The position numbers were made by a program, and so were the translations under genes. A DNA stretch of 40,013 nt. Origin: an uncultured Candidatus Saccharibacteria bacterium (GTDB lineage: Bacteria; Patescibacteriota; Minisyncoccia; Phycocordibacterales; UBA2100). Positions 10,130 to 40,013 of the stretch are shown piece by piece. Numbering within the stretch: position 1 is the stretch's first letter; every line of letters starts with the position of its first letter. The stretch lies in assembly GCA_964592945.1 (NCBI GenBank), contig CAZQGK010000001.1, forward strand, positions 9,224-49,236. Reading direction: 5' to 3'. The notes beneath the pieces were generated by a model. The model was given only the letters and a program-made list of their open reading frames with translations. It was not told where the DNA came from and made no database searches.

Positions 10130-10137
10130 AGAAAAAA

Positions 10138-12751: not shown

Positions 12752-12753
12752 AC

Positions 12754-13917: not shown

Positions 13918-13929
13918 GCGACACATAGC

Positions 13930-13971: not shown

Positions 13972-14046
13972 GAAATGGGAGACCGTGTCTCACCTTGTAT
14001 ACGAAGAACGTTCTCGCTTCGGTTCAACAGGCCTTATACCGGCTTC

Positions 14047-18171: not shown

Positions 18172-18921
18172 TCAAACAGTGTCCGCCAAGTCGCCGGTGT
18201 AATATTTAATAATGGGGGTGGTGAGCGGCCTGTCTTTCGTGACCGTAAATCCTTCCTTGGTAGCGACCAGGAGGCAACCGGGAACAGGGATAAAAACAGG
18301 TTCGAGTGCGAACTCGGCTTCGGCAAATGCGCCGACCGCGGCTGCGGCGCGTACCAAGCGCATCCGACGCGCGTACGCGGTGAACGGCTGTAGTGTTCGT
18401 GTGTCAAAAGTCTCTCCTATGACCGTTATCGCCTCGAGCATTTCCTCCCGCTCCGCAAGGTATGGTGCGAGCTTTGTGAGCGCCCGTTCATCGGTGATGA
18501 GCGAATCGACGTTATACTTTCGAGCCGCAAAGGCGGCAATGTCGGGATCGGCCTCGCCGACGAGAGGGACCATGCCGTTCTCGTAACACCACACCGACTT
18601 CTCGAGTGCCTCATGAGAGTTCTCCATGTACACCAGCGGCCGCTTTGAGATGACGCCGAACGGTTCACGCGCAATATCCTCAAAGGCCCACTCGGAAAGA
18701 AACGATCCGTTCGCAGTATGAATAATCTTTACGAGAGAGATGTCGTCTTTGTATCTGCGTGTGGGAAGCGGAGCGCGCACGAAGTCGTCAATGGTAACAA
18801 GCGGCAACTCGTCGAAGGTGCGCTTGCCTCCCCATAGTTCCCGGTAAAAGGAAGCCTGAGGGTGGCTGGCAACAGCAGCGATGAGCCGCTCTATCTTATT
18901 GTTATCACGTAATTCAGGCAT
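18172..18921 (-). CDS. B-family protein B2: ligase paralogue with no P-loop
   Basis: 249 aa, alignable along its length with B1 and B3 (SFYRELWG, RRYKDD, FLSEWAFEDIAREPFG, HEALEKSVWCYENGMVPL, KYYTGD). The P-loop position reads IHTANGSF. Confidence 0.75.
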   Translation of the reverse strand: MPELRDNNKIERLIAAVASHPQASFYRELWGGKRTFDELPLVTIDDFVRAPLPTRRYKDDISLVKIIHTANGSFLSEWAFEDIAREPFGVISKRPLVYMENSHEALEKSVWCYENGMVPLVGEADPDIAAFAARKYNVDSLITDERALTKLAPYLAEREEMLEAITVIGETFDTRTLQPFTAYARRMRLVRAAAAVGAFAEAEFALEPVFIPVPGCLLVATKEGFTVTKDRPLTTPIIKYYTGDLADTV

Positions 18922-18923: not shown

Positions 18924-20039
18924 TTACGTGCGTTGCATAACCTTTACCTCTTTGAATTTGGCGGGAAAGGGTTCGGACACGAACTCGACAACGAGCGGGA
19001 GGAAGTTCTTTTCCGATACAAGTTCCCCGAGTGTCCGCGTAGGAGTGAGAAACAGGTTTTGGGATACCAATTCGGCGATGTGTGCACCTAATTGCGGATC
19101 TGAAACTCCATCGGCGCGGAACACGCGTAGCACGATCTTCCCCGTGATGCGGCCGTCAACTAATTCTTCCGAGGCCTCGGCACGATAGTCGTCGGCCATT
19201 CCCGGCTCCAGTGAAAGTACCCTGTCGAATTCCTCGCGTCGCAAAATCGTCCCGGCAATTTTCAAGTAGTCGAACCCACGCCTGCCGACAATTTCAAAAG
19301 TAATCGCCTCACCGCACGGGCAGGGACCGCACATACGCACAATATCGCCGGTGCGATATCTTTCTATCGTAACTCCCTGCGGTAAATGTCTCGTCACCAG
19401 GAGGTCGCCGTACCCGTGCTCGTCCGGCTCGCGTATTTCTATCGTTACGTCCTTGGCGGGATGGTACTGGTTCAGAGGAGTGTGCCCGCACGACGGCAAC
19501 GACACGGGCAAAAACAATTCCGTCACATTGTACATAGTCCGGATGCGGGCAAAAGGGAAACTCTCGCGCAGTAATTTTACCCGTGGTTCGGTCATCACCT
19601 CGCCTGCGACATCCATAGTACTCACTCCGCGTCGAACATCCTCAGGAACGTTCGACGAGAGCTTGATGGCGAACGATATGAGCCCGCGTATATGGTCGGG
19701 TGCGAATTCACTGAGCAGACGGGGAAGCTCCGGAGTGAAATCGTCGTAATCCAGGGCAAGCGATGCAGATCTGTTGCACGCAGGGTTGCTCCTCATTATA
19801 ACGAGATACCTCAAACGTATGCTTCGCGTACCGACACAGGTAAGACGCCGTCTTGAGTCGCCCACCCAATCCGGCGCAAGACGCCCGGCCGCAACGGCCA
19901 GCATGAGCCCCTTACCTGTGCTTCCGGAGGTCGTACACAAGCAATACGCATACACGTCTTTGTGCCCTTCACGTATCACTTCAGCAAGAAGAGGATCGCA
20001 TATGACCCGCGGCGCGTCTTTACGCTCTAATATCTCCAT
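18924..20039 (-). CDS. Short PaaK/F390-synthetase-like adenylate-forming ligase A2
   Basis: 371 aa with CTTSGSTGKG (P-loop), YRTGDIVRM, CPCGEAITFEIVGRRGFDYLKIAG and a C-terminal KFKEVKV. The start lies 6 nt after the C1 stop. Confidence 0.8.
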   Translation of the reverse strand: MEILERKDAPRVICDPLLAEVIREGHKDVYAYCLCTTSGSTGKGLMLAVAAGRLAPDWVGDSRRRLTCVGTRSIRLRYLVIMRSNPACNRSASLALDYDDFTPELPRLLSEFAPDHIRGLISFAIKLSSNVPEDVRRGVSTMDVAGEVMTEPRVKLLRESFPFARIRTMYNVTELFLPVSLPSCGHTPLNQYHPAKDVTIEIREPDEHGYGDLLVTRHLPQGVTIERYRTGDIVRMCGPCPCGEAITFEIVGRRGFDYLKIAGTILRREEFDRVLSLEPGMADDYRAEASEELVDGRITGKIVLRVFRADGVSDPQLGAHIAELVSQNLFLTPTRTLGELVSEKNFLPLVVEFVSEPFPAKFKEVKVMQRT

Positions 20040-20045: not shown

Positions 20046-20270
20046 CTACTCCAAAAAACCTCCGCAACTAACAAAGAGTATCTTATTCGGATTTTGTTTC
20101 GGCGCTTGTTGCACGCCGCTATCGGGCGAGCACTCATTGTCCGAAGCAAGTTTCGGCGTATTGTTGTGAGCGAAAAATTGCTGTACGTATATATATGTGT
20201 ACAAGAGCGCGGCAAACACGAAGGCCGCAGCGACGATGACCATTTGGCGGATAGTGATGCGCTCTCGCAT
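20046..20270 (-). CDS. Tail peptide C1: 74-aa N-terminally membrane-anchored peptide ending ...NPNKILFVSCGGFLE
   Basis: It has a basic N-terminus (MRERITIRQ) and a TM helix (MVIVAAAFVFAALLYTYIYV). The C-terminal SCGGF is shared with three other small ORFs but encoded by different codons. TACAAT lies 6 nt upstream of the ATG. Confidence 0.75.
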   Translation of the reverse strand: MRERITIRQMVIVAAAFVFAALLYTYIYVQQFFAHNNTPKLASDNECSPDSGVQQAPKQNPNKILFVSCGGFLE

Positions 20271-20276
20271 AATTTC

Positions 20277-20282
20277 ATTGTA
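20277..20282 (-). promoter_or_regulatory. -10 box (TACAAT) 6 nt from the C1 ATG; TTGCCC lies 16 nt further upstream
   Basis: The reverse strand reads TTGCCC-16 nt-TACAAT-gaaatt-ATG, with no SD. The spacer contains the 20288..20303 inverted repeat. Confidence 0.4.
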
Positions 20283-20324: not shown

Positions 20325-22031
20325 ATGTTACAATGGGGCACCATGTGTTTTTCTCCGAAGGAGCTTCCGAGCGGAGCCGTTTTGGGAGGATGTCTACTGG
20401 CCGTTCTTGCTCTTGCTCTGCTGGGAGTGTTCATATTCCGGGAGTGGACGACCTCTTTCTTCAGCTCCGCATTGCAACAAGCTAACGTCATCGAAACCGT
20501 AAGCGTACAAGGGGGCACCTACCATGTCGATCGCGGCTTCGTCTCAACATCAGATGCCGTTCCGGTCCAACCCGCACGAAAGATCGGGGCGCTCCGCCTT
20601 GCATACGCACTTACGCTTGCGAAGCGTTCGCCTCTCATCGCCCTTGCGGGAACGGATGCGGACAAACTGGATACGGCAACCACGCAATTGGAGGCGGTGC
20701 AGAATGCATTGGCCGATTTACAGAGCGAAGAAAACGACAAGAGACTGATCCGGAATACGCTCTTTCCCATACGTTGGCTCCGGGCGCTTGCGGATACCGA
20801 ACGGGCCCGGCAGGCATTTCTCACGAACAGTTCCGATCAAAATGAGACGAGGTATCGTGCGGCGCTTGAAGCTGCCGCCGTGGCTTTTGAGAGCGATTTG
20901 AGCCGGTACCGTGCGGCATTTGCGCAGACTGCGATTCCTTCCCAACGGATTGCCGTGATGAGCGGGATCGAAACCACGGAGAGCATTCTGCATGCGATAG
21001 ATGAGGCCGGGGCAGGCATGCAGGCAACGGGGTCGCGTCTGCGCAATCGAGAACGTTGCCTTTCGGGTCTCTTTTGGTTTTGTGGTGAGCGGGATCTCGC
21101 CATTCCTGCACTGGACGAACCACGCGACGTGCGATCGGGTGCGGCATCTCGCCTTCCCGCGGACGTGAACGATATGCTCGATCTATACGCCGCGGTCTTT
21201 GGGTTACCGGCGCTGAAGAACCGGACGGTATTTGCCATCAGTGACGATTCTTGTATCGAACCGAGACCGCTACCGCATTATTTCGTGATACCTCCGGACA
21301 ATGGAGCTGGTGTCCCCGACCTAGTACCCCCGATGCTATTTGTGGGAGACACGACTATTAACCGCATTGTAGAGCCGTCTGCGAATTGGAGAACGTTTAA
21401 TCAATATCTTTTGGATCTTGGCGTGAAATATACGCCGGGGAATCCGATCAGCTATTATCAATGTCCTGAGCTAAGAGGTCTTCAGGGGCATATCTTCGGT
21501 ATCGACGCCGTGTTCGAGGAAATACAAAAGGATCCGTCGTGGGCGAAACGCTTCGGTCATGTTTCCGTGGCCGGCACGCGCGTGATATCAGATGGTGACA
21601 TCACCGCATTCCTTGCCTCGACGACGCGCGCCGCGTCCGGGAACGGATCACCGTCGTCCGAGCGCGATCTTCTGACCGAGTTATCACTCATGGTCAAGAA
21701 TCGAAGTGCGGCGCTTGATCGGCTGGTCGCAGCAATTGCAACCATAGATCGTACAATTCCCGGACTGAAACAGTACGGCATTCACGAGGGATTTGACGCG
21801 AACTACCTTCTGATCGCTAAAAGCGGTTTTCCACAACTTTTTGAGACCCAAAATCCGTCGGTCGTCGGCACTACATCAATCTCAGTATTTGTCGGTAAGG
21901 GCTCTCCTCGTCCTTCGAACTCGCTGTGGTATTCACAATTGCCGGAGGAAGAAAAAATCACGGCCATGTCCGACTTGAAGGTGTGGGTCCGGCTGCATCG
22001 AGAATTCCTTAAGTCCGGCGTTGCTCCGTGA
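20325..22031 (+). CDS. D-family protein D1: membrane-anchored, uncharacterised, four conserved Cys
   Basis: The start is set at ATG 20325, with TATATT 6 nt upstream. The track start 20094 overlaps the divergent C1 gene. It has a TM helix (AVLGGCLLAVLALALLGVFIF) and blocks shared with D2 and D3: ALRLAYA..A.RSPL.AL.GTD, C-x2-G-x4-C and Y.C.E. Confidence 0.7.
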   Translation: MLQWGTMCFSPKELPSGAVLGGCLLAVLALALLGVFIFREWTTSFFSSALQQANVIETVSVQGGTYHVDRGFVSTSDAVPVQPARKIGALRLAYALTLAKRSPLIALAGTDADKLDTATTQLEAVQNALADLQSEENDKRLIRNTLFPIRWLRALADTERARQAFLTNSSDQNETRYRAALEAAAVAFESDLSRYRAAFAQTAIPSQRIAVMSGIETTESILHAIDEAGAGMQATGSRLRNRERCLSGLFWFCGERDLAIPALDEPRDVRSGAASRLPADVNDMLDLYAAVFGLPALKNRTVFAISDDSCIEPRPLPHYFVIPPDNGAGVPDLVPPMLFVGDTTINRIVEPSANWRTFNQYLLDLGVKYTPGNPISYYQCPELRGLQGHIFGIDAVFEEIQKDPSWAKRFGHVSVAGTRVISDGDITAFLASTTRAASGNGSPSSERDLLTELSLMVKNRSAALDRLVAAIATIDRTIPGLKQYGIHEGFDANYLLIAKSGFPQLFETQNPSVVGTTSISVFVGKGSPRPSNSLWYSQLPEEEKITAMSDLKVWVRLHREFLKSGVAP

Positions 22032-27724: not shown

Positions 27725-28470
27725 ACGACCGTGATATCACGGATATCCGTGCGGTATCGAATGACCGGCGTAATCAGGCGTGTGAGCTTCGTGACGACAA
27801 GAGTGCCGTCCTCCGATTCGACAAACGTATTAGGCACCGTGCGGAATACAGGTTTATCGGCAAGCGGCGCTTCGGCAATCGCTCCCACCTCGGGCAACCG
27901 CAAAACGAAGCGGACCGTTCGCGCGAAATCCGAGAACGGCATGAGCGTCGGCGCGTCGAATGAATCGCCGAGAACGGTAAGCGACATGAGTTTTTCCCCG
28001 CGACGTTTCAAATATGGCAACAATTTCGGGAGAGATGCGGTGTCTGTGATAAGCTGGTCGATACGATACTTCCCCGCCGCGAACATCGCGATATCGGCAT
28101 CACGTTCGCCGATGAGCGGCACCATGTTGTTTTCATAGCACCACATGGATTTCTCCAATGCCTCGTGCGAGTCCTCCAGATAGACCATTGGACGCTTCGA
28201 TGGTACGCCCCATGGTTCTTGCCCGATGTCATCGAAACTCCATTCTGAAAGGAACGGGCCCTCTGGTGTGTGAACGATTTTCACCAGCGCTTTCTCATCT
28301 TTATATCGCCGCTTGGAGAGCGGCACTTTCAGAAAATCGTTCCGTGAGACCAAAGGGAGCTCGTCAAAATTTGCAACTCTCCCCCAGATTTCGCGGTAGA
28401 ATCCGGACATTCCGCTTTTCATCACGTCATCTACGAATGCTGATATGCTGTTTTTTATTCCGTGTTCCAT
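27721..28470 (-). CDS. B-family protein B3: ligase paralogue with no P-loop
   Basis: The start is set at ATG 28470 (MEHGIKNS...), 4 nt after the A4 stop, which gives 249 aa like B1 and B2. The track start 28548 overlaps A4. Motifs are GFYREIWG, RRYKDE and FLSEWSFDDIGQEPWG. The P-loop position reads VHTPEGPF. Confidence 0.75.
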   Translation of the reverse strand: MEHGIKNSISAFVDDVMKSGMSGFYREIWGRVANFDELPLVSRNDFLKVPLSKRRYKDEKALVKIVHTPEGPFLSEWSFDDIGQEPWGVPSKRPMVYLEDSHEALEKSMWCYENNMVPLIGERDADIAMFAAGKYRIDQLITDTASLPKLLPYLKRRGEKLMSLTVLGDSFDAPTLMPFSDFARTVRFVLRLPEVGAIAEAPLADKPVFRTVPNTFVESEDGTLVVTKLTRLITPVIRYRTDIRDITVV

Positions 28471-28474
28471 GGAG

Positions 28475-29626
28475 CTATATTCGTTGCGACAACCTGACCT
28501 CTTTGCCCTTCTCCTTCTCAAGCTCCGCTCCTCCAAACTCAACCGCAAGCGGCATTATATAACCGGACTCCACGAGTGTATTAAGCGTTTTGGCGGCGGT
28601 TACAAATAACTCCTCGGAAAAACGCCGCCGTATTCGCTCTAAAAGAGCGGCGTCACCCTGTCCATCTTTCCGGTATATCTTTAGGGTTATTCTGCCTTTG
28701 AGCTTTCCCCCCGACATGACACTGTCAACGTGGACGAAATAATCATCCATCAAATCGCTGCACAACAGTGCCACCCTGTCGAATTCCTCCCTTCGCAATA
28801 TTACGCCGGCCACTTTGAGGTAATCGGACCCGCGTTTCCCCACCACTTCGAAGGTGACCTTTTCACCGCATGCGCATTCTATACTATGGAGTCTGCCAAC
28901 ATCTCCGATTTTGTACCGTTGTATGGAAATATTTCTGTTGAAATTTTTTGAGATCAATATATCACCAACCCCGCTATCGTCGGGTCCGGCTATCTCCACC
29001 GTCACGCCATCGTGCGGGTGGTACTGATTCGGAGGCAGAAATCCGCAAGAGGGTTTTGATATCTGACCGGTTTCTCCGGAAGAATATAGCATCCGTATTT
29101 CCGCGTAGGGGAAAGAAGTGCGTATCAGTATCTCGGCCTTTTTTGACAGACCCTCCCCCGTAAACCGCAGACTGTTGATTTTTCTTCTCGCCTCTTCGTC
29201 CAAATAGTCGGTCATTTTGGAGATAAAGAATGGAAATCCATACAATCTGTCGGGCGCAAAATCAGAAAGTAGCTCGGAAACACCCTGTATCATATCGCGC
29301 GCATCCATAACAATAACGCGGGACGGACTGCCCGGATCACTGTTCCTCAAGAAAAGAAGCGAGCCAAGCCTCATTCCCAATACACCTTGGCAGAGGAGCG
29401 TTCTTTTTGCGCCGGCGGGAAATGTATGGATGTTGACCCCGCTTCCCCATGCGAGAAGAAGCGGTTCGCCGCCTGATGTGCCGGACGTCATGCGCAGACC
29501 ACAACGCTTGGCCTCTTCTTTCGGCGCGGACAAAAGGTCCGCCAGCATTTTTTCGGCCACAGGCTTAAAATCCCCGCGCTCCATGACGGAAGCAGTACGC
29601 ATTTCACTTTTCTTGAAGCTTTTCAT
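28475..29626 (-). CDS. Short PaaK/F390-synthetase-like adenylate-forming ligase A4
   Basis: 383 aa with RMTSGTSGGEP (P-loop), LYSSGETG, YKIGDVGRL, CACGEKVTFEVVGKRGSDYLKVAG and a C-terminal KEKGKEVRL. Confidence 0.8.
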   Translation of the reverse strand: MKSFKKSEMRTASVMERGDFKPVAEKMLADLLSAPKEEAKRCGLRMTSGTSGGEPLLLAWGSGVNIHTFPAGAKRTLLCQGVLGMRLGSLLFLRNSDPGSPSRVIVMDARDMIQGVSELLSDFAPDRLYGFPFFISKMTDYLDEEARRKINSLRFTGEGLSKKAEILIRTSFPYAEIRMLYSSGETGQISKPSCGFLPPNQYHPHDGVTVEIAGPDDSGVGDILISKNFNRNISIQRYKIGDVGRLHSIECACGEKVTFEVVGKRGSDYLKVAGVILRREEFDRVALLCSDLMDDYFVHVDSVMSGGKLKGRITLKIYRKDGQGDAALLERIRRRFSEELFVTAAKTLNTLVESGYIMPLAVEFGGAELEKEKGKEVRLSQRI

Positions 29627-29777: not shown

Positions 29778-29830
29778 TTTCATCGGCTTGTTCCCAAGCC
29801 AAAATATTTGTGGACACAAGGGAGGAATCG

Positions 29831-30799
29831 GTGCACAAATTCATCATCGGTCTTTACGCACTTGTTCTGTCCGGGATAGCTTGGTCCGCGCAGGCCGCGG
29901 AACATGCCTACCCCAACAGGACCGTTACGATTGTCGTGCCCTTCACTGCGGGCGACGGAGCGGATGTGGCCGCCAGACTTGCGGCGGAGGCACTCGCAAA
30001 GGCCCTCAAGGGGAACTTCGTCGTGATGAACAGGCCGGGCGCCGGTGGCGCTATCGGTGTGGAGTCGGTACTTCAGTCGCCGAAGGACGGCTACACGATT
30101 TTGTTCACGACCAATACCCCGTTGACGATCCGTCGCGTGGTGTATCCGGGTACGACATCCTACGATCCCTTCAAGGATCTTGTTCCGCTCGGGGTCATAG
30201 CACGTTTCCCGAGCATCCTTGCGGTACGAAACGACTCACCATACAAGAACCTGCGCGAGTTGGTCGAATACGGCAAAGGCCATCCCGGGGCGCTTGGCTT
30301 CAGCACTCCGGGATTCGGTAGTCTCGGTCAGCTGAACCTCGCGATTCTGAATGCGCAAAGCGGTGCCGGCATACGAGCCATCCTCGAATACAAGGGGTCC
30401 ACCCCGGCTGTCACCGACCTGCTCGGCGGACATGTGGACGGCGTGGCAACATCGCTCGGTGCTGCAAGCAGCCACATACGGGGAGGCGCTCTGCGGGCAA
30501 TCGCGATATCGAAAAAGTTTCCCGGTTTCGATATTCCGACACTCACGGAATCCGGATACCGGGAGGATATCCTCGGTCTCTGGGTGGGTTTCTTCGCAGT
30601 CGCGGGCACTCCGCAAGAGACGGTGGACCGTCTCGTACCGGCAATCAAGCGGATGACGGACGACCGCGGGCTCTCCGAGAAACTTCTCGGAAACGGCATG
30701 CTGTTGGAATATATTCCGCCGGCGGCCGTGGAAAAGGAGCTCGACTGGGAAACAAAAACGGTCGCGAGCATCGTTAAAAAGCTGACAGCGCCAAAGTAA
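29831..30799 (+). CDS. Bug/TctC-family solute-binding protein (TctC-3), orphan
   Basis: GTG 29831 is preferred because GGAGG lies 5 nt upstream; the track start is 29810. The signal peptide (HKFIIGLYALVLSGIAWSAQA) is followed by AEHAYPNRTVTIVVPFTAGDGADVAARL. Confidence 0.85.
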   Translation: MHKFIIGLYALVLSGIAWSAQAAEHAYPNRTVTIVVPFTAGDGADVAARLAAEALAKALKGNFVVMNRPGAGGAIGVESVLQSPKDGYTILFTTNTPLTIRRVVYPGTTSYDPFKDLVPLGVIARFPSILAVRNDSPYKNLRELVEYGKGHPGALGFSTPGFGSLGQLNLAILNAQSGAGIRAILEYKGSTPAVTDLLGGHVDGVATSLGAASSHIRGGALRAIAISKKFPGFDIPTLTESGYREDILGLWVGFFAVAGTPQETVDRLVPAIKRMTDDRGLSEKLLGNGMLLEYIPPAAVEKELDWETKTVASIVKKLTAPK

Positions 30800-31132: not shown

Positions 31133-32797
31133 ATGGCCCTCCGACCAACACCTCCTTCTCAGTTCTTTACCCCAGTGATAGGCATTGTTTGTGCATTGTT
31201 ACTTGCGTCCGGATGGTATATGTATACCTCAAAACATGACCGGACCGCTCACGCTTTTTTCTTGGAGTCCCTGACCAAGGCCGGCATACCGGCCTCGGAT
31301 AACGACTCTCTTTCGGCACTTAAACTTGCGTATGCAAAGGCACTCGCGGGGCGGTCTCCGCTTATGGCCCTCGCCGGAACCGATCCGGAGACGATGTCAC
31401 TGTCCGTGGACAAACTGGAGCAGTCGGTCGTCCGACTTTCTACCTTGCAGAAAGACCGTAACGCGGATGAACTCGTACGCTCATCGCTATATCCGATCGC
31501 ATTTCTGCGCTCCATGGCGAACCTTGAAGCAGAACGCCTTCGATTTGTTTCGTCGGGAAGCGACACGGATGAACTCGCATACGAGACCGCCCAGTACGCG
31601 GCGATACGCGCATATAAAGACGATCTGCAAAGGTTCAGACGTGCATTTTTGCGCATAGTACCCGCTGACACCGCAGAGTTTACCAACGACTCAACAGTCA
31701 TAAGCCGGGACGGCATTATACGGGCCCTTGATGAACTCGGAAACAAAATCTCGAAAACCGAAGGAGCGCTACGACAAAGAAACCGCTGTCTTGCGGGATT
31801 CATATCCGCCTGCGACAGGAACAGCCTTACTCTTCCTATTGTTCCGGTTGTCAAGGATTTTCCGGTACATGCCGAAGACATTTCCCGCGCAGAGAAGATT
31901 CGTTCAATGTTGGGCGCCGCGTTCAACAACCCAACGATCGGGAACGCGCCGATCATTCAACTTTCCCGCAGCGCTTGCACGGAGTCTATCGGACTTCCGC
32001 CGCTTTTTGTTGTGCACACAGCCCAACCGTCGCCGACAAATGATGCAACGGGTTTGCGTGTGTCTTTTGTGGGGGACCTCAAGCTATTAAAAAGCGACCT
32101 CTATAATGAGGTGCCATTTTTCAAGTACTTTGCCGATCATGGCATCAGCTACGTGTATACGCCGATGTCGTTCTACACGTGTTCCGAAACAGGCTACGAT
32201 TTTGAGCGTGTTCTTGGCGTACGCTCGGTCAGTGAGTTTTCAAATGAGTTCAACGTGAGCCAGTATGTGAGCGGCACGACGAGCGCCGCTTTGCGGAAAC
32301 TTGAGCGGGTGCTCGCGCCGACAAATAGCATCTTGCGCGAATCGGACGCAATGCAATATCTCGCTGAAACGCAGGCGCTTATAACGAGCGGTGCACTCCC
32401 CCGACCGCCTGCCGGCGCCATTGAGTACCTATCGCTACAAATAGCAAACAGGACATCAAAGTTTGATTTCATCCTCGAAAATATTGCAGTCATTGAGGAT
32501 CACAACGTCAGGCTGGCACACAGAAATATACCGGTCGCGCTGAGTGCGCAGTACCTGTTCTTTACCCGCAGTGCGTTCCCACTTCTATTTATGAGTAGTA
32601 ATACTTCCGTCAGTGGACGATACGACCGGCCTTTCAAGGAAAATAACGCGGCGTTTAAAGAGCAAGCGTACACGCTTTATTCGTCGCTCCCTGATACGGA
32701 ATCAACACGCAACAAGCTTATACGCGAAATACGCATGTATACCAATCTTCATACTTCTCCTGAAAGCGTCCCCACGGAAGAGATACTCAATAGATGA
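31133..32797 (+). CDS. D-family protein D2: membrane-anchored, uncharacterised, four conserved Cys
   Basis: 554 aa with a TM helix (VIGIVCALLLASGWYMY). Motifs are ALKLAYAKALAGRSPLMALAGTD, RCLAGFISAC, SACTES and FYTCSE. It is divergent from C2 across a 37-nt gap. Confidence 0.75.
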   Translation: MALRPTPPSQFFTPVIGIVCALLLASGWYMYTSKHDRTAHAFFLESLTKAGIPASDNDSLSALKLAYAKALAGRSPLMALAGTDPETMSLSVDKLEQSVVRLSTLQKDRNADELVRSSLYPIAFLRSMANLEAERLRFVSSGSDTDELAYETAQYAAIRAYKDDLQRFRRAFLRIVPADTAEFTNDSTVISRDGIIRALDELGNKISKTEGALRQRNRCLAGFISACDRNSLTLPIVPVVKDFPVHAEDISRAEKIRSMLGAAFNNPTIGNAPIIQLSRSACTESIGLPPLFVVHTAQPSPTNDATGLRVSFVGDLKLLKSDLYNEVPFFKYFADHGISYVYTPMSFYTCSETGYDFERVLGVRSVSEFSNEFNVSQYVSGTTSAALRKLERVLAPTNSILRESDAMQYLAETQALITSGALPRPPAGAIEYLSLQIANRTSKFDFILENIAVIEDHNVRLAHRNIPVALSAQYLFFTRSAFPLLFMSSNTSVSGRYDRPFKENNAAFKEQAYTLYSSLPDTESTRNKLIREIRMYTNLHTSPESVPTEEILNR

Positions 32798-32908: not shown

Positions 32909-33883
32909 ATGAAGCTACGACCTGTGGCCGCGGCGCTCATCGCGCTCGCGTGCCTTGCTGCCTCTCCGGCGAAAGCCGCGGAGGAATACCCGTGCCAAGG
33001 AACGGTTCGTTTCGTCGTCGGACTCCCGGCGGGATCCACGACGGACGCCATCGTGCGTCAGATAGCGGGTGAGATGGCACCGCTTCTGAAGCGGACGATT
33101 ATCGTTGAGAACATCGTGGGCGCCGACGGTGCCCTCGGTGCGCGAAACGCGCTCGCAAGTGCAGCCGACGGGTGCAACTACCTGGCGGCGACCAACGGCA
33201 TGCTCGGCATCGAACAGAGGCTGGGGCCGCAAGGCTTCGACCTCGAAAAAGCGGTGCCGGTCGGCATGTTCGCCCGCAACTACCAAGTGCTCGTAGTTCA
33301 CCCGGCGGTTGCCGCGAATTTGGGCGAGTTGCTCGCGTACGTGAAAGCGAATCCCGGGACGCAATTCGCGCGTTCCGCGACTTCAAGTCTCATCGCTTGC
33401 GCCTACTTCGCAAAGAAGGCGGGGCTTGCGATGAAAGACATCTTCTACAAAGGCGATCCGCTGCTGATGCAGGACGTAGTTGCCGGACGTGTGCCCGTGG
33501 CATGCCCGTTCCTGTATCCGGTCCGCGGACAAATCGAGGCCGGTGCATTGCGGGCGCTCGCCATCCTTGGGCCCGGGCCGTTCAGCGAGTTGCCGACCGT
33601 CCCGGCGATTACCAATGTGCTTCCGGGCTCCGAAAAGCTCGGGGCGCTCGAGGGCCGCGGTTTCTTCGTGTGTCCTCCAGGATGTCCGGAGGCGGCCGTC
33701 GAGATGTTCTCGCGATATCTGCGGGAAATTCTCGCAAAGCCTGCAACGGTTACCCGCTTCCGCGAAAGCAGCGCGGAGGCGGTCTACATGACGCCGGGAG
33801 CAACGGCGTTGTACATCAAGTCGCAAAAAGCCCTTTTTACCGAAGTGGTGCGGGAAATCGGGCTGGAGTTCAAACCAAAATGA
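32909..33883 (+). CDS. Bug/TctC-family solute-binding protein (TctC-4), orphan
   Basis: 324 aa with SD AGGGAG upstream. The signal peptide ends PAKA and is followed by AEEYPCQGTVRFVVGLPAGSTTDAIVRQI and ...VENIVGADG. Confidence 0.8.
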   Translation: MKLRPVAAALIALACLAASPAKAAEEYPCQGTVRFVVGLPAGSTTDAIVRQIAGEMAPLLKRTIIVENIVGADGALGARNALASAADGCNYLAATNGMLGIEQRLGPQGFDLEKAVPVGMFARNYQVLVVHPAVAANLGELLAYVKANPGTQFARSATSSLIACAYFAKKAGLAMKDIFYKGDPLLMQDVVAGRVPVACPFLYPVRGQIEAGALRALAILGPGPFSELPTVPAITNVLPGSEKLGALEGRGFFVCPPGCPEAAVEMFSRYLREILAKPATVTRFRESSAEAVYMTPGATALYIKSQKALFTEVVREIGLEFKPK

Positions 33884-33968: not shown

Positions 33969-34700
33969 ATGAGCAAAGTAGTCACAGCGCCGGAGATGTT
34001 TGTCGAATTCCTCTCTTCTGTTGAAAAACATATCCCAGAAATGGAGTGTCGTGTTTTCCCCTCCTCTTTCGATGCCAACGACCCAAATCTGCGGGCAATT
34101 CCGCGACCGGTGGATTGGCAATGGACATCGTGTGAGCGGGCGCTCCGGCACGCTAATTCCAAAGGCGTGATGATGCGGCTACCGACATTTTGGCAAATCG
34201 GATTACCGCTTCATGCTGCATGTCGTGCGGTGGGGATTCCCATTTTCGTGAACGAGCCGGAAAATATTCCCGTCGGCGCCATGGCCCTCAAAACAGGCGG
34301 CATTGATACGGTCGTCACGGAAAATCGCGACGCGGCCGCATTTGCGGAGTACCTCGTCGCGCAAAAACTGCCCATGCCGCGATTGGGAATACTCGTGCAC
34401 CGAATTGAAGACGCATGGGACGTGTCCCGCGTAGTTCTCGATACGTGGAGTCTCGTCGCGCAAGAGGTGCACGCATTTCCCGGAGTACCCGTACTCGAAC
34501 AGTGCGCCGCGCTTTCAGCAGAGAAGGCCTCGCGATTCCATCTCTCCGATTCCTATCTCTGGGAAATTACCGGCGACGAGACATTGATAACGGGCAAGAG
34601 TGGCGACCCGATACCGCTTTCCCGATACCGGCTTCCCTGTTCCCTCAAAAAATCAGGGGAATGCTCTTGCGGAAAACCCGTATTCGAGCGACGCCTATGA
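33969..34700 (+). CDS. F-family protein F1: N-domain-only ligase paralogue with no P-loop, second type
   Basis: 243 aa. The pattern EVHAFPGVPVLEQCAAL...FHLSDSYLWEI...LSRYRL...GECSCGK follows the PaaK N-domain and stops at the CxCG motif. There is no TSGTTG-type P-loop. The stop overlaps the A5 start (ATGA). Confidence 0.7.
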   Translation: MSKVVTAPEMFVEFLSSVEKHIPEMECRVFPSSFDANDPNLRAIPRPVDWQWTSCERALRHANSKGVMMRLPTFWQIGLPLHAACRAVGIPIFVNEPENIPVGAMALKTGGIDTVVTENRDAAAFAEYLVAQKLPMPRLGILVHRIEDAWDVSRVVLDTWSLVAQEVHAFPGVPVLEQCAALSAEKASRFHLSDSYLWEITGDETLITGKSGDPIPLSRYRLPCSLKKSGECSCGKPVFERRL

Positions 34701-35962
34701 TGACGCTTCAACAACTGCATGACGTGGTCGAGCTCTGCACGAAAAGCGGTACTTCCCCTTTTTACCGGAAGCTCTACGGGATGAGTGCGGACGAACCGCC
34801 GAGAAATATCACGACGTGGGACGACTGGCTCTCACTCCCCGTGTTCGGCAAAGAGCATCTGACGGGACAGACGCTTCCGGGCCGCGCCTTTCCACCGCTC
34901 CGGAACATCGACGCCGTACTCGCCTCCTCCGGTACATCCGGCAATCCTCCCGTATACAGCCCGTGGACGCTCAATGACGGCTACGGGTACCGCCTGCAGT
35001 ATCACGATTTCAAAAAGGCGACACTTTCCTCGATGCCGACACCGTTTCAGCAGGATTGGATACTGAGCAAACACCAGCAGAAAGGACGACTGATAATTTT
35101 AGACCCGCGACGGCACAAAGCATCGCTCCATCTCGCGCAGGTCATGGGTGTCGACAGTATGTTCCTTATTCTCCACCATCTGCCCGTCATTGCGGAGGAA
35201 ATGGTGCGCCTCGGCATGAACGAAAACATACGCTTCATTGAAATTGCGGGAGAGACGTGCTCGCGCTCACTATTTCTCTATATACAAAAGACGTTCCCGA
35301 ATGCGGTCGTCTGCCCCATTTACGGCTCGACCGACGTTGAGACAAGTCCTATCGGGATACCGTGCAGGCCAATTACCGGTGAAGAGCCGCTCGAGGTGTA
35401 CCACGAAGGAGAGCGCACTCACCTCGAGATAATCGACAGCGGAACAGGCGCGGTCCTGCCGGTAAAAAAAGGAGCCGAGGGCGATCTTGTCATCACTGCA
35501 TACGCCGGCGAGACAGCTACATTCCCGCTTCTACGATACAAAATCGGAGACACCGTTCGTGTTGTAGAAGAGAAATGTGAAAAACACGGGACGTGGTCGT
35601 TCACCGTTCTCGGACGCACGGAGATGGACTTTCTGAAAGTCCCCGGCGGGATCCTGCGGGCGGACTCGGTTGAGCGCACGCTTCGGGCGTTTAGCAACGT
35701 CGTATCGGACCGGTTCGAATTGCACCGGTACGAGCGCAGTACCGCGGAGGGCCTTAAGGTTGAGGTGGTGCTACATATCGAGGCGGCACGGAACACTGAC
35801 ATGGAGGCACTGGCGGGTAAGATTTCAAGCGCGTTGCATGTGGGCGCTTCGTACACGTATAACGACGGTGTAAAAGAAGGTTTGTATCTCCCCCTCATTT
35901 GTGTTCCTCTCTCGGAATCGCCGTCGAGAACGGGAAAACGCGTACGAATGTTCCGACATTAA
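34697..35962 (+). CDS. Full-length PaaK/F390-synthetase-like adenylate-forming ligase A5
   Basis: 421 aa from ATG 34697; the track start 34415 lies inside F1. Motifs are FYRKLYG...WDDWLSLPVFGKEHL, SSGTSGNPP (P-loop), YGSTDVETSP, YKIGDTVRV, GRTEMDFLKVPGG and a C-terminal GKRVR. Confidence 0.8.
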   Translation: MMTLQQLHDVVELCTKSGTSPFYRKLYGMSADEPPRNITTWDDWLSLPVFGKEHLTGQTLPGRAFPPLRNIDAVLASSGTSGNPPVYSPWTLNDGYGYRLQYHDFKKATLSSMPTPFQQDWILSKHQQKGRLIILDPRRHKASLHLAQVMGVDSMFLILHHLPVIAEEMVRLGMNENIRFIEIAGETCSRSLFLYIQKTFPNAVVCPIYGSTDVETSPIGIPCRPITGEEPLEVYHEGERTHLEIIDSGTGAVLPVKKGAEGDLVITAYAGETATFPLLRYKIGDTVRVVEEKCEKHGTWSFTVLGRTEMDFLKVPGGILRADSVERTLRAFSNVVSDRFELHRYERSTAEGLKVEVVLHIEAARNTDMEALAGKISSALHVGASYTYNDGVKEGLYLPLICVPLSESPSRTGKRVRMFRH

Positions 35963-35985: not shown

Positions 35986-36013
35986 TTGACAACACCTTGG
36001 AAGCCGCTACAAT
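35986..36013 (+). promoter_or_regulatory. Promoter of C3 (TTGACA, 16 nt, TACAAT) with the -10 box 7 nt from the ATG
   Basis: ttgaca at 35986..35991, a 16-nt spacer, and tacaat at 36008..36013, followed by cggagct and ATG 36021. This predicts a leaderless or near-leaderless mRNA. Confidence 0.55.
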
Positions 36014-36020
36014 CGGAGCT

Positions 36021-36272
36021 ATGCACAGGCTATCTCTTTCCGGGGTACGTCTTGTTTTGGTTGGTATTGCGGCGTTCGTTCTGGGAGTTATAGGTTTCTT
36101 TTCGTATACAGGTACGTCGCCGTCCTTCCAGAAACTATCCTGCAGCGTGCGCGACGCACTTACGAGCGTAAATATATTCCGCGATTCATCTCCTATCGCG
36201 TCTGCCGGATGTGAGAACAAAACCGGCGAGGATGGCGAGATATACTACGTAAGCTGTGGTGGCTTCTTCTGA
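36021..36272 (+). CDS. Tail peptide C3: 83-aa membrane-anchored peptide ending ...GEIYYVSCGGFF
   Basis: ATG 36021 lies within track ORF 35901..36272. It has a basic N-terminus and a TM helix (LVLVGIAAFVLGVIGFF). The C-terminal VSCGGFF is identical to C4. Confidence 0.7.
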   Translation: MHRLSLSGVRLVLVGIAAFVLGVIGFFSYTGTSPSFQKLSCSVRDALTSVNIFRDSSPIASAGCENKTGEDGEIYYVSCGGFF

Positions 36273-37002
36273 TAGGCGCACAACGCCGGAAATGCTGATT
36301 GCGGAGCTCTCCGCAATTGAGCCGCGCATTCCGGAAATGGAGTGCCGCATTTTCCCATCCTCGTTCAATCCAAAGGACACTGATCTGCGCGCCTTTCCGC
36401 GGGCGATACATTGGCGATGGACTTCGTGTGAGCGCATGCTTCGATTCTTCGGTGCACAGGCGGTCATGACGCGAGTCCCGAACTTTTGGCAGCTTGAGTC
36501 GCTCGTTCACGCGTGTTGCCGGAATATCGGTGCGCCGCTTTTTACAAACGAACCGGAGAACCTGGCCTTGGGCGCGGCGGCTATCGTTTCTGCAAACGTC
36601 AACGCGATAATCAGCGAAGCGTCAGAGACCGCTCCATTCGTATCGTTTCTTCTTGAGCGGGATGTGCCGCTACCCGCGCTGTGGCTTCTCATCCATAAAG
36701 CGGACGCGCGCGAATGGAGTGTCCCTCCTTCGCTTATACAAAATGGAATTACCGTAGCGCAAGAGGTCCACCTATTTCCCGGGGTCCCAATTCTCCATCA
36801 ATGCCCGGCTCTCGCGAGCGACAAAAAACCCCTATTCCATGTGTCTGATGAGTACGAGTGGGAGATGTTGGAAAGCGAGACGCTTATTACGAGCGCCGGC
36901 GGCGACCCGCTTCCACTACACCGGCTGCTCCTGCCCATTTCTATCCATGCCGCCGGGGAATGCGCGTGCGGAAAAACAATTGTTCAAAAGCGCACCGTAT
37001 GA
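36256..37002 (+). CDS. F-family protein F2 (paralogue of F1)
   Basis: 248 aa from GTG 36256, which overlaps the last codons of C3; ATG 36292 is an alternative. It is collinear with F1 (IPEMECRIFPSSF, EVHLFPGVPILHQCPAL, GECACGK). The stop overlaps the A6 start (ATGA). Confidence 0.65.
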   Translation: MVASSDRRTTPEMLIAELSAIEPRIPEMECRIFPSSFNPKDTDLRAFPRAIHWRWTSCERMLRFFGAQAVMTRVPNFWQLESLVHACCRNIGAPLFTNEPENLALGAAAIVSANVNAIISEASETAPFVSFLLERDVPLPALWLLIHKADAREWSVPPSLIQNGITVAQEVHLFPGVPILHQCPALASDKKPLFHVSDEYEWEMLESETLITSAGGDPLPLHRLLLPISIHAAGECACGKTIVQKRTV

Positions 37003-38252
37003 ACCTCGAAGCCCTCAGTTCCCTCGTTACCCGCGCAACGGCCCCGGGCCGTTTCTACCGCCGCTTGTACGGCATGAAGGAAGGTGATGCGCCGCTTTCA
37101 ATCAATTCATGGGAGGAGTGGAAAACGCTGCCGCTCCTTACGAAAAGCGACCTGCTCAATGAGCCGCTTTCTGAGCGATCGTTCTTGCCAATCCGCGACG
37201 TTGACTATCTGACATCAACCTCCGGCACGACGGGGACGCTCCCTTTATTCAGTCCTCGTACCCAACTGCTCGAATATGAGTTCCGAACGGAATTTTACGA
37301 TGCCGCGGGACCGGTATTTTCATCCAAACTAGTTCCACACCAGCAGGAACAATTCCTCTCCGCGCGCAATCTCTGGCCGCGTGTTGTCGTCATAGACCCG
37401 CGCAACCCCGAAAGCTCCGTACGCCTCGCGCGCGCGGCCGGAGTCGACGCCATTTTTGCCTTCCTCTCTCACATTCCGCTCGTTGCCGGGCATATGGTGC
37501 GGGAAAGCATTGCAGAGAACATCCGGTTTATCGAGGTTGCAGGCGAGACCTGCTCGCGGGCGCAATTTGAATATATGCACAGGACATTCCCGAACGCGGT
37601 CATTATCTCAACCTATGGATTGAGCGAAGTGGAAAACTCTCCAGTCGGCATTCCCTGCCGCCCCATGACTGCCGGGAATCCGCTCCCTGTGTACCATGCA
37701 AAAGATGGCGTCTATTTAGAACTCCTCGATACCAAAACGGGTACAGTGCTCGAACCGGAAGCGGGCGTTGAGGGAGAATTGGTCATCACCGCATATCGTG
37801 GCGAACCGGCGGCATTCCCGACTCTCCGGTATAAGAGCGGCGACACCGTGCGCGTTGTTGACGAACACTGCACCGCTCATGGCTCATGGTCATTCACTGT
37901 CCTCGGGCGCTCCGACATTGATTTTGTGAAGATCCCCGGCGGCATGCTCAAAGTCGACGAAATTGGACGCACTCTTCGCGCCCTGAACGATGTGGTCACG
38001 GACAATTTTGTTCTGCATCTTCGAAACGCCGCTGACGGAGCACGGACACGGGCAATACTGCATGTCGAGCCGCATGCGGCGGTTGATCTCGCTGTTTTAG
38101 CCGGCCGTATCGCCATTGAATTGCGTGTCTCGCCCACTTCTAGCTATGCCGACGGCGTCGCACAAGGTCTCTACGAACCGCTGATATGCCAACTCCTCGA
38201 CAAAGCACGAGGCGACATATATAAGCAAAAGAGCATCATCCTCGAGCCGTAG
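36999..38252 (+). CDS. Full-length PaaK/F390-synthetase-like adenylate-forming ligase A6
   Basis: 417 aa from ATG 36999; the track start 36858 lies inside F2. Motifs are FYRRLYG...WEEWKTLPLLTKSDL, TSTSGTTGTLP (P-loop), YGLSEVENSP, YKSGDTVRV and GRSDIDFVKIPGG. Confidence 0.8.
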   Translation: MNLEALSSLVTRATAPGRFYRRLYGMKEGDAPLSINSWEEWKTLPLLTKSDLLNEPLSERSFLPIRDVDYLTSTSGTTGTLPLFSPRTQLLEYEFRTEFYDAAGPVFSSKLVPHQQEQFLSARNLWPRVVVIDPRNPESSVRLARAAGVDAIFAFLSHIPLVAGHMVRESIAENIRFIEVAGETCSRAQFEYMHRTFPNAVIISTYGLSEVENSPVGIPCRPMTAGNPLPVYHAKDGVYLELLDTKTGTVLEPEAGVEGELVITAYRGEPAAFPTLRYKSGDTVRVVDEHCTAHGSWSFTVLGRSDIDFVKIPGGMLKVDEIGRTLRALNDVVTDNFVLHLRNAADGARTRAILHVEPHAAVDLAVLAGRIAIELRVSPTSSYADGVAQGLYEPLICQLLDKARGDIYKQKSIILEP

Positions 38253-38284
38253 GCATGCGGCTCCCATGTCCCGCTGCTACCCCG

Positions 38285-38293
38285 TGGTAAAAT
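38285..38293 (+). promoter_or_regulatory. Extended -10 element (TGgTAAAAT) 6 nt from the C4 ATG
   Basis: tggtaaaat at 38285..38293, followed by caccgt and ATG 38300, with no SD. Confidence 0.4.
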
Positions 38294-38299
38294 CACCGT

Positions 38300-38536
38300 A
38301 TGGTCGGACATCCTACAGCTCGTACTGTGCGATACGCGGCGCTTGGGGTCGTCTCGTGCATATTGACCATCATCGGCCTGCAGACCCTCACCCCGCGCTC
38401 GGCGACATTGCAAAGGATTCTTCACGTAAGCACGTCGGGGGACGGGGTCTTCGCCGACAGTGGTTCCGCCTGCATCGTTGCAAAGAAGAGCTTGAAGAAT
38501 GAGGTTTTCTTCGTGAGTTGCGGAGGGTTCTTCTAG
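38300..38536 (+). CDS. Tail peptide C4: 78-aa membrane-anchored peptide ending ...NEVFFVSCGGFF
   Basis: It has a basic N-terminus, a TM helix (LGVVSCILTIIGL) and the C-terminal VSCGGFF. D3 starts 27 nt downstream. Confidence 0.7.
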   Translation: MVGHPTARTVRYAALGVVSCILTIIGLQTLTPRSATLQRILHVSTSGDGVFADSGSACIVAKKSLKNEVFFVSCGGFF

Positions 38537-38563
38537 CTTTCCCCGATACGATACAATGCCCCT

Positions 38564-40013
38564 ATGCAACGGGGCCGTCGAGTCTGGTGGGTAGCAGCCG
38601 CTTGCGCCGTCGTTATACTTGCCGCCATTGCGTGGATCGTGCATGTTAAACGGTATGACTCGGTTGATATCTTTTTCGCTACGGCGCTACGACAGGAACA
38701 CATCAAGGAACGCGTCGTCGTGGATGGGATCGTATATGCCGTGTCAGACGGACAGGTGGTGCGCGAAGGCAAGGGAACGGTGACCGGAAAGAATGCCACC
38801 GACGCACTCCGGATCGCCTACGCGCTTGCCATAACCCGCCGGAATCCGCTCCTGTCGCTTGAAGGTACCGACCCGGACAGGCTTGAGCGTGCGATTGTGG
38901 AGTTGCAGTCCGTCCAGCAGGCGCTCCATGATGCACAAGCAGAAGAGGCGGACGCACGGGCCGTAGGCTCCGCACTTTATCCTATTGAATTCCTCAAGAC
39001 TGCGGCTCGCGTAGAACGTGCGCGACGGTTATTCCTCAAAACAGGGGACCAAAAAGATTGGGAGGCTTACCGGCTGGTGCAGACAGAGACGGCGCGTGCA
39101 TATGATTCCGACGCAAGACGATTTGAACAGGCATTTATTGAAACGGTTCCCTCGGATGCGGAAAAGATTAATGTTGTGGGGGGAGGAAAGATCTTGAGCA
39201 GGGAAAGCGAGCTTGCAGCAATAGCGGGAATAAAACACAACGCCGGCCTCGTTCGGAAAGCTCTGGAGGCGCGGAGTAGTTGTGTATCAGGGACGGTATC
39301 TGCATGCGAGGAGAGTGACATTGCGCTCCCTATTGTAGAAACAAATCAAACAACTGCGGCGTCGAGCACGTCTCTTGCCCTCGCCGAAGAGGTAGAAGAA
39401 ATATTAATTCAGTCTACTCTTGCGCCGTCGCAGAACGGAACGGAAAGACCCGCGGCTGCAACAAAGCAAAGACCTGTAGAGCTATCGCAAAGCTTTTGCA
39501 TCAACTCATCGGCCGCTAGTAAGATATTTTCCGTTCGCGAGCAGAAAAACGAGAATGGGGCGGAGGTAGTATTCGTCAGCCTTATCAGTAACATACCTTT
39601 CATCAAGGCAAGTTCGTTCGCCGGTACACGTTATTTTGACTATCTTCTTTCCAAAGGCATCGAGTTCGTCCCCCTTTGGCTGACATCTACCTATACATGC
39701 GCCGAGTTGGGGAGCGACTATGGCGTCGCGCTCGTAATGCTCTCTGTCGACGAGAGTGTGCGTACGCACCCTTTCAGCGCCTTGCTGAAAAACAACACAT
39801 TGCAACTCGCTCAAGTAGAGAAAATGATATCGGATGCGCCCGTCATACGTGAATCCGATATCCGGCGCTACCTCGCCCTGGTGCGTGAATCCATGATCGG
39901 AGACAACTGTGTGGTCGGTTATTCCACAGAAATCGCGCGCTCCTTCATTGGCGACGATTGCTGGTTCCACAGCAACTACGTGGGCGACACCGTGATGGGC
40001 GACGACGTGAGTT
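38564..40013 (+). CDS. D-family protein D3 (3'-partial), with an in-frame hexapeptide-repeat (LbH)-like segment at the window end
   Basis: Open-ended, so absent from the ORF track. ATG 38564 has TACAAT 6 nt upstream. I translated it by hand with no stop through 40013. It has a TM helix (VWWVAAACAVVILAAIAWIV) and the motifs ALRIAYALAITRRNPLLSLEGTD, SCVSGTVSAC, SFCINS and TYTCAE. The last ~40 codons read MIGDNCVVGYSTEIARSFIGDDCWFHSNYVGDTVMGDDV. Confidence 0.7.
   Translation, partial: MQRGRRVWWVAAACAVVILAAIAWIVHVKRYDSVDIFFATALRQEHIKERVVVDGIVYAVSDGQVVREGKGTVTGKNATDALRIAYALAITRRNPLLSLEGTDPDRLERAIVELQSVQQALHDAQAEEADARAVGSALYPIEFLKTAARVERARRLFLKTGDQKDWEAYRLVQTETARAYDSDARRFEQAFIETVPSDAEKINVVGGGKILSRESELAAIAGIKHNAGLVRKALEARSSCVSGTVSACEESDIALPIVETNQTTAASSTSLALAEEVEEILIQSTLAPSQNGTERPAAATKQRPVELSQSFCINSSAASKIFSVREQKNENGAEVVFVSLISNIPFIKASSFAGTRYFDYLLSKGIEFVPLWLTSTYTCAELGSDYGVALVMLSVDESVRTHPFSALLKNNTLQLAQVEKMISDAPVIRESDIRRYLALVRESMIGDNCVVGYSTEIARSFIGDDCWFHSNYVGDTVMGDDVS

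Follow-up and report, generated by a model that had tools for sequence, protein, structure and literature searches.

What chemistry is served by a cysteine held at a fixed distance from the free C-terminus of small membrane proteins is the question raised by a 40,013-nucleotide stretch of DNA from an uncultured Candidatus Saccharibacteria bacterium. This whole stretch is referred to as the window, and it corresponds to contig C1:9224-49236 of an assembly of 812 kb in 120 contigs, 82% complete. Four microproteins with a shared cysteine (Cys) tail, designated C1 to C4, are encoded in the window, together with PaaK-like ligases of the ANL type, truncated ligase paralogues (B and F) and large anchored ectoproteins (D). 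An earlier note on this DNA had proposed that a ligase acts on the peptide's C-terminal carboxylate to activate it. The sequences point to chemistry on the Cys thiol and not on the terminal carboxylate, and the tail is tentatively read, as a possibility short of a probability, as a membrane-tethered reactive-Cys arm, a thioester shuttle that would work like DltX.

Cysteine-tail microproteins in the window

The pattern TGY-GGN-GGN-TTY has four matches in the window, compared with 0.45 expected, and four were reached in 0 of 100 shuffles. Each match closes one small open reading frame (ORF) of 74-83 amino acids (aa). The ORF ends, FVSCGGFLE in C1, FISCGGFIE in C2, YVSCGGFF in C3 and FVSCGGFF in C4, place the Cys sixth from the end in C1 and C2 and fifth in C3 and C4, exactly as the earlier note had described. 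The C-G-G-F codons differ among the four copies, which indicates that selection acts on the protein. A common layout was found in all four, consisting of a basic N-terminus, a single hydrophobic helix, a weakly conserved linker and the Cys tail. The assembly was searched for further Cys-tail ORFs of this type, and none was found elsewhere in its 812 kb.

Position and conservation of the tail

A profile built from 17 peptides of the source and related genomes was searched against a collection of 5.8 billion proteins, and relatives were counted as clusters at 90% identity. Among the 98 relative clusters recovered, the tail Cys lies sixth from the end in 65 and fifth in 32, and one carries a 19-residue extension, so that a fixed Cys-to-C-terminus distance, claimed beforehand from four sequences, was recovered in 97 of 98 relatives. 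The lone member with a non-terminal tail (P0072, CGGFLE plus 19 residues) comes from a 1-kb contig and may represent read-through, a sequencing error or a true variant.

Type 1 tails (65 clusters, Cys sixth from the end) follow the pattern N-P-N-K-M-L-F-[IV]-S-C-G-G-F-x-[EDQ], with no variation at N, P, N, F, C, G, G and F, and type 2 tails (32 clusters, Cys fifth from the end) follow [IV]-[YF]-F-[VLI]-[ST]-C-G-G-[FTI]-[FYLI]. Across the 97 relatives, the tail Cys, both Gly residues after it and F(-3) are invariant, and the least conserved motif positions are the final one or two residues. In type 1, the final two positions are occupied by L48/I10/F3/Y2/E1/V1 and then E32/D27/Q6, with the last residue missing in two NPN-type peptides; the final residue of type 2 is F21/Y8/L2/I1 (Phe or Tyr in 29/32). 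Because C-G-G and F(-3) never change, in contrast to the variable final one or two residues, the Cys rather than the carboxylate would be the reactive group. Distant genomes of the order with a low guanine-plus-cytosine (GC) content keep the spacing with C[AS]G, e.g. FVSCAGFLE, FVSCSGFLK and FVTCAGYLD. As judged from these alignments, the fixed distance from Cys to end is a family-wide property under selection, and the near-invariance of the tail across lineages and paralogues fits an enzymatic handle better than a signal.

Fused or longer peptide forms were not found, which is weak evidence. Comparison of C1-C4 with Pfam using hmmscan (E ≤ 10) gave a match to neither AgrD nor DltX (PF12459), and a literature search returned no paper describing the Cys-tail motif or the module. 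Other readings of the motif were tried and rejected. A lipobox reading of F-[VI]-S-C was ruled out by the location of the motif ~45 residues past the sole membrane helix and by the Phe invariant at -3. CaaX prenylation was ruled out by a Cys that is fifth or sixth from the end and never fourth; the island also showed no prenyltransferase. For double-glycine leader cleavage or a ubiquitin-like Gly-Gly end, neither a C39 peptidase nor an E1-like enzyme was present among the island proteins scanned.

Second cysteine and predicted topology

A mid Cys, located between the helix and the tail Cys, is present in 95/97 peptides at a distance of ~21 residues from the tail Cys in type 1 (median) and 13-16 residues in type 2. 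It has been lost in three members, all of which retain the tail Cys, and the tail Cys has been lost in no detected member; since the mid Cys is losable while the tail Cys stays, the latter appears to be more than a disulfide partner. Lys plus Arg around the transmembrane (TM) helix are more numerous on the N-terminal flank in 75 peptides and less numerous in 4. The median length of the apolar run is 20 residues, with just 12-15 residues in about a quarter of the members. From the charge bias alone, the C peptides are predicted to be signal-anchor proteins in the N-in/C-out orientation with the tail outside, and each is then a single-TM microprotein with a conserved nucleophile motif at its extreme, predicted extracytoplasmic C-terminus. 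A membrane-anchored DsbA-like protein with a CPYC motif is encoded in the source genome.

Linkage and co-inheritance of peptide, ligases and D

Gene context was compared for 21 peptide genes at 11 loci in 10 genomes, which are kin, so that the independence of the counts is overstated. For 16/21 peptide genes, a D gene is found no more than 300 bp away; the corresponding count for a ligase is 14/21, rising to 21/21 at distances of up to 8 kb. The flanking of the peptides by ANL ligases, noted previously for the window, was borne out, with PaaK-like ligases adjoining the C genes. Tail class and the type of the nearest ligase agree, fifth-position tails occurring with a long ligase in 11/11 cases and sixth-position tails with a short ligase in 9/9; the 21st peptide gene, an apparent exception, encodes an NPN-type peptide without its last residue. 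The type-2 order is F, long ligase, C and D in nine loci, and the usual type-1 order is C, short ligase and B, with D divergent.

In a sample of 301 genomes of the order, the number of genomes with a match was 6 for the peptide, 7 for D, 5 for B (with a further weak match in G234) and 3 for F. C, D and B/F are thus confined to the same handful (6-7) of genomes, ~2% of the sample. All B/F-bearing genomes hold D (the weak B-like G234 excepted) and all but one hold C, and genomes with B and without F have type-1 tails exclusively. A contig search with F alone gave no related loci, and the ligase alignment as query gave five. Because of the shared patchy phyletic distribution and the match between tail class and ligase, the peptide, the ligase pair and D are read from sequence as one accessory system, present in roughly 2% of the sampled genomes.

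One locus of the same genus, in the 100%-complete genome G011 (L009:10338-13818, equivalent to C1:350337-353817), contains an inserted operon of AcpS, a PP-binding carrier, a DltA-like ligase (491 aa) and a DltB-like MBOAT (394 aa), bordered directly by a type-1 C gene on one side and a D gene on the other. Neither DltX (PF12459) nor DltD (PF04914) was matched in G011. With a Dlt-like operon placed between them and no DltX or DltD match in this genome, C stands in the position of DltX and D in that of DltD, a hint of a DltX-like role for C. MBOAT (PF03062) was found in G011 only and was absent from the 9 other system-bearing genomes (10 checked).

The D ectoprotein family

The D family comprises 495 representatives at 50% identity and has no Pfam or NCBIfam match. 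Its members have an N-terminal TM helix with a net charge higher on the N side in 39/46 usable sequences, and the ectodomain has exactly four Cys in 119/124 sequences. Invariant residues are C219, C227, C282, C350, P121, E132, R135 and Y348. D is read as an extracytoplasmic disulfide-bonded ectoprotein. A model of D2 was obtained with a predicted local distance difference test score (pLDDT) of 95.4 and a predicted template modelling score (pTM) of 0.93. It gave no clear fold match in the PDB, the best Foldseek E value being 0.048 and the VIA matches being limited to generic helical bundles with Z ≤ 7.0, and no usable neighbour for D was found in the ESM Atlas; on the basis of the model, the family may represent a new extracytoplasmic fold. 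An additional full-length D paralogue is located at G000:C51:386-2050, and there is no Cys-tail ORF on its 5.6-kb contig.

Ligases and truncated partners

An all-against-all comparison of the window proteins identified four PaaK-like ligases of the short type and three truncated B partners, as well as two long ligases (A5 and A6) and two F partners. In a profile search, A5/A6 and the short ligases aligned to PaaK structures with E values of 4.5e-15 to 4e-12, and the P-loop is intact, with S75, G76, T77 and G79 invariant. A5/A6 scored 42.9-58.2 bits against two curated PaaK equivalog models, and ligase scores of 58-60 bits were also obtained, all far below the cut-offs of 646.3 and 700. The F family had no match in Pfam/NCBIfam scans. 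The AF2 model of F2 (pLDDT 85.8) matched the N-domains of PaaK-family proteins (ClxA, AjiA1, PaaK1) in Foldseek with an E value of 3.5e-7 and prob 1.0, and F has neither a P-loop nor a C-terminal domain. F is related to the long ligases in the way that B is related to the short ones. No ligase has a signal sequence or other export signal.

CoaE (dephospho-CoA kinase, where CoA is coenzyme A) had no match in G000, G011, G179, G217 and G255, although CoA salvage is possible, and a PP-binding carrier was matched in G011 only, of five system-bearing genomes. These negatives raise the question of which thiol is used by the PaaK-like ligases.

Other features of the window

The coordinates of the main features are collected in Table 1.

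Table 1. Positions of the microprotein, ectoprotein and ligase genes and of one promoter-like element in the window.
Feature	Position	Strand	Description	Remark
C3	36021..36272	+	83-aa microprotein: basic N-terminus, 1 TM helix, linker with mid Cys, tail YVSCGGFF	tail Cys codon 36255-36257
C4	38300..38536	+	78-aa microprotein, tail FVSCGGFF	tail Cys codon 38519-38521
C1	20046..20270	-	74-aa type-1 microprotein, tail NPNKILFVSCGGFLE	short ligase begins 7 nt downstream
C2	30859..31095	-	78-aa type-1 microprotein, tail NPNKMLFISCGGFIE	
Promoter-like element	35986..36013	+	TTGACA-16-TACAAT (11/12) ahead of C3	-10 end 7 nt before C3 ATG
D3	38564..40012	+	N-terminally anchored large D-family ectoprotein	runs off window
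D1	20343..22031	+	D-family protein divergent from C1	start set at in-frame ATG behind TACAAT
D2	31133..32797	+	554-aa D-family protein divergent from C2	copy modelled
F2	36256..37002	+	248-aa truncated PaaK-like N-domain paralogue without P-loop	start overlaps C3 end
A6	36999..38252	+	417-aa long PaaK-like ANL ligase, intact P-loop TSGTTG	start overlaps F2 stop by 4 nt
F1	33969..34700	+	F2 paralogue (47% identity)	
A5	34697..35962	+	long PaaK-like ligase, A6 paralogue (45% identity)	directly upstream of C3
A2	18924..20039	-	short (371-aa) PaaK-like ligase after C1	
B2	18172..18921	-	truncated ligase-like partner of short ligases	
Ligase set nearest C2	26606..29626	-	short ligase 26606-27724, B partner 27721-28548, short ligase 28475-29626	

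The -10 element 7 nt from the ATG suggests that the C3 transcript is leaderless. TACAAT followed by 6-8 nt and ATG occurs at the starts of C1, D1, C3 and D3 (sites 20268-20282 on the minus strand and 20329-20345, 36008-36023 and 38552-38566 on the plus strand), and this pattern has five matches in the window, compared with 0.87 expected. C4 has TAAAAT 6 nt ahead of its ATG and D3 has TACAAT 6 nt ahead. The C and D genes look like leaderless transcripts from their own promoters. An Rfam scan of the window gave no match, and a 184-aa ORF at 13473-14027(-) was set aside as it looks non-coding.

The window also encodes three D proteins, two D-related E proteins, four TctC-type binding proteins and two sulfatase-superfamily proteins. 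The similarity between E and D extends over ~200-400 residues, with an identity of roughly 21-27%. A peptide-free ligase set, consisting of E, a 489-aa polytopic permease-like protein, a short ligase and B, is located at 8681-13491(-) with no D gene adjoining; its permease-like protein (10138-11607) was considered as an MBOAT and ruled out, as it is not MBOAT-like. The TctC-family binding proteins are encoded at 14127-15068, 25543-26535, 29810-30799 and 32909-33883, with no TctA/TctB match among the proteins scanned, and they look like orphan carboxylate-binding proteins beside carboxylate-activating ligases.

Proposed role of the tail and alternative explanations

In the preferred reading, the C peptide would be a bitopic microprotein with its N-terminus inside and a tail of ~45 residues outside, the sole conserved part of which is the terminal motif (hydrophobic-hydrophobic-[VIL]-[ST]-C-[GAS]-G-hydrophobic-hydrophobic, followed by E/D/Q in type-1 tails). 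The thiol of the invariant Cys would be the reactive group, and the tail would carry an acyl group as a thioester or other thiol-linked intermediate. The acyl group would come from an acid that the cytoplasmic PaaK-like ligase activates together with its dead-paralogue partner. At the outer face, the D ectoprotein would receive this group from the arm. The short fixed distance to the free end would let the tail thread into the active site of a partner, and the mid Cys would act as a protecting or resolving partner. Acylation of the Cys, the identity of the acyl group, its crossing of the membrane and the function of D are inferred in this scheme.

A number of observations weigh against a reactive arm. 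A cytoplasmic location of the ligases contrasts with the predicted outside position of the tail, and the MBOAT-free state of 9/10 system-bearing genomes leaves the membrane route unexplained. The topology is itself based on charge bias, D has no recognisable catalytic motif or known fold, and the Dlt-like insertion in G011 is a single case. The window holds six ligases and only four peptides, one ligase set being peptide-free, and a locus in G221 (L045:9726-11058, C3) has F, a long ligase, sulfatases and D with no detectable Cys-tail peptide. Three tandem single-TM proteins of 142-165 aa are encoded upstream of D in G221, and the G221 arrangement may be a variant of the system.

A plain structural disulfide accounts just as well for two Cys in the predicted outside segment and for the DsbA-like enzyme, and an explanation of this kind is regarded as somewhat unlikely. 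C would then be a structural or regulatory subunit of D with a 13-22-residue extracytoplasmic loop, its hydrophobic end would dock in D as a strand or plug, and the ligases would act on an unrelated small-molecule acid. Besides the two conserved Cys in a predicted outside segment with a variable loop length and the presence of the oxidoreductase, this is consistent with D as the commonest immediate neighbour (≤300 bp in 16/21), with four ectodomain Cys in D, as expected of an exported disulfide-bonded protein, and with the existence of peptide-free ligase sets. It does not agree with the loss of the mid Cys in three members and of the tail Cys in none, and an invariant Ser-Cys-Gly-Gly within an otherwise hydrophobic strand used for docking would rather suggest a reactive site that is exposed. 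Moreover, the tail class follows the ligase type and not D alone, and the confinement of B/F to D genomes (weak G234 excepted), nearly all with C, would be unexpected for independent ligases. Very unlikely, in comparison, is a signal precursor in which cleavage past the TM helix or at the NPNK/acidic stretch frees a Cys peptide of 10-11 residues that acts from cell to cell and may carry a ligase modification. The N-terminal helix is signal-like, with an apolar run of 12-15 in about a quarter of the members, the last 10-11 residues are very hydrophobic behind the polar invariant NPNK, and the C genes have their own promoters; however, the median apolar run of 20 is anchor-like, no processing protease, exporter or receptor/sensor kinase was seen in the island, and a near-identical tail in distant lineages, with several same-tail paralogues per genome, would not be expected of a specific signal.

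The earlier note had instead joined tail and ligase through the C-terminal carboxylate. On this model, an ANL ligase would adenylate the carboxylate before export, and attack by the Cys would close a thiolactone, with a ring of 5 residues for type 2 and, for type 1, a ring of 6 residues or closure through the terminal Glu/Asp; alternatively, an amine, e.g. a polyamine, would be ligated. The link between tail and ligase stood, as tail class co-varies with ligase type, but activation of the carboxylate is unsupported and mildly disfavoured by the sequences, and is considered improbable. The residue destined for the acyl pocket of the ligase would be the most variable one, given that E/D/Q interchange, two peptides are without their last residue and one has the 19-aa extension. 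The spacing of a 5-residue autoinducing peptide (AIP) ring holds in the 32 type-2 tails and not in the 65 type-1 tails, which have a 6-residue spacing, so that ring size would differ between the classes (5 vs 6), and the conserved mid Cys (95/97) would be left without a role. The tail is predicted to be outside and the ligases are without export signals; the tail is also near-invariant across genera and GC contents, unlike the strain-variable AIPs. AgrB (PF04647) was not found in G000 (82% complete) or in four near-complete system-bearing genomes, no ThiF-like or RRE family was found in Pfam scans of the island proteins, and the island has no receptor kinase. Assignment of the precursor to the Agr system was not upheld, since there is no AgrD match, no AgrB in the five genomes, and a stop codon 4 or 5 residues past the Cys in 97/98 relatives. 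Amine ligation of the Pup/LysW kind gained no specific support, terminal E/D/Q being limited to type 1 and absent in two members; the polyamine module reported 2 kb away is represented by a membrane-fused SpeE-like gene at 22429-24093, 2 kb from C1, but the SpeE/SpeH module is not beside C3/C4. A literature search gave no ANL enzyme that adenylates a protein C-terminus. These points outweigh a tail that is strictly terminal in 97/98 relatives, type-2 tails of the form C-small-small-bulky hydrophobic-bulky hydrophobic-carboxylate, as in AIP rings, and a type-2 end (Phe/Tyr in 29/32) that would suit the aryl-acid pocket of a PaaK-like enzyme. The F, ligase and peptide order resembles that of ribosomally synthesized and post-translationally modified peptide clusters, C3 has its own strong promoter, and insertion of a 75-aa protein probably takes place post-translationally, so that there would be time for modification in the cytoplasm; the ThiF-like GrcB and EnfB provide a precedent for an ATP-dependent thiolactone and for C-terminal adenylation (PMC12250964). 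In a narrower form that is quite improbable, the type-2 Phe/Tyr carboxylate would be adenylated by the PaaK-like ligase, with the dead N-domain paralogue as peptide-binding subunit, to give an AIP-sized thiolactone that is exported on the signal-anchor and read by D.

About 30 kb of a tiny candidate-phyla-radiation genome is given to repeated copies of the module, which is probably important for surface biology or host interaction. If the tail is a ligase-loaded Cys arm, it would be a ribosomally made, protein-encoded counterpart of the phosphopantetheine arm or of the Tyr shuttle of DltX, and a function would be provided for three families now without one (microprotein, truncated ligase partner and D protein). 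If a thiolactone is formed, AIP-type chemistry would be extended to a new enzyme class and a new phylum; ultra-small episymbiotic bacteria would then make AIP-like rings in an ATP-driven, AgrB-independent way, and an ANL enzyme would for the first time be shown to act on the C-terminus of a protein.

Comparison with known systems

AgrD and the C peptides are both small precursors with a membrane-associating N-terminus, and the type-2 Cys plus four residues matches the AIP ring spacing. The C-terminal extension of AgrD is removed by AgrB during ATP-free ring formation, whereas the C motif is already terminal, the type-1 spacing is 6 residues, the tail is invariant and not hypervariable, and there is a second conserved Cys. 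The reasoning behind carboxylate activation is sound, in that a free C-terminus needs ATP to become a thioester and ANL enzymes make acyl-adenylates; to our knowledge, no ANL enzyme adenylates a protein C-terminus. ATP-dependent adenylation of a peptide carboxylate, with capture by a Cys thiol or a backbone N, is carried out by GrcB and EnfB, which are ThiF-like enzymes (PMC12250964). These are E1/ThiF-like proteins with an RRE domain and not ANL enzymes, none was present among the island proteins scanned, and GrcB joins an internal Glu side chain to a C-terminal Cys, the reverse of the proposed orientation. The Pup and LysW systems combine a terminal Glu/Gln with PafA, which is glutamine synthetase (GS)-like, or with the ATP-grasp ligase LysX; the C system does not have this combination, and no GS-like or ATP-grasp family was found among the island proteins scanned.

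The ligases A5/A6 and the short ligases resemble the PaaK family (PaaK1/2, BT_0428, ClxA, AjiA1, NatL2) in their alignment to PaaK structures and in the retained P-loop, and F folds as a PaaK N-domain. Unlike PaaK, each ligase is paired with a P-loop-less truncated paralogue and has a peptide and an ectoprotein as neighbours instead of an aromatic-acid catabolic or benzoxazole pathway.

DltX is a single-TM microprotein with the extreme C-terminal hexapeptide FxYxxF, and its invariant Tyr takes D-alanine over from DltB, an MBOAT, and hands it to DltD, an ectoenzyme (PMC12148441). The C family differs from DltX in having Cys and not Tyr as the nucleophile, in the lack of a DltX Pfam match, and in a longer linker (~45 aa) with a second Cys. 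The ligases are PaaK-like with a dead partner and not DltA, 9/10 system genomes are without a carrier, MBOAT or SGNH protein of Dlt, and the D model has no clear PDB match and gives no support for an SGNH-like fold as in DltD. Both DltX and the C family have a single TM helix, a C-terminus that is extracytoplasmic (predicted for C), and a terminal nucleophile motif with aromatic flanks as the sole conserved feature (FxYxxF vs F-x-S-C-G-G-F); both systems have an adjoining ANL ligase gene and an N-terminally anchored ectoprotein partner (DltD vs D). In DltX, the fixed distance between nucleophile and free end is explained by the threading of the tail into its partners, and the MBOAT-fused 'acyl shuttle' hexapeptide FxYxxF likewise has its nucleophile at a fixed distance from the extreme C-terminus. 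DltX is the closest working analogue of the C family.

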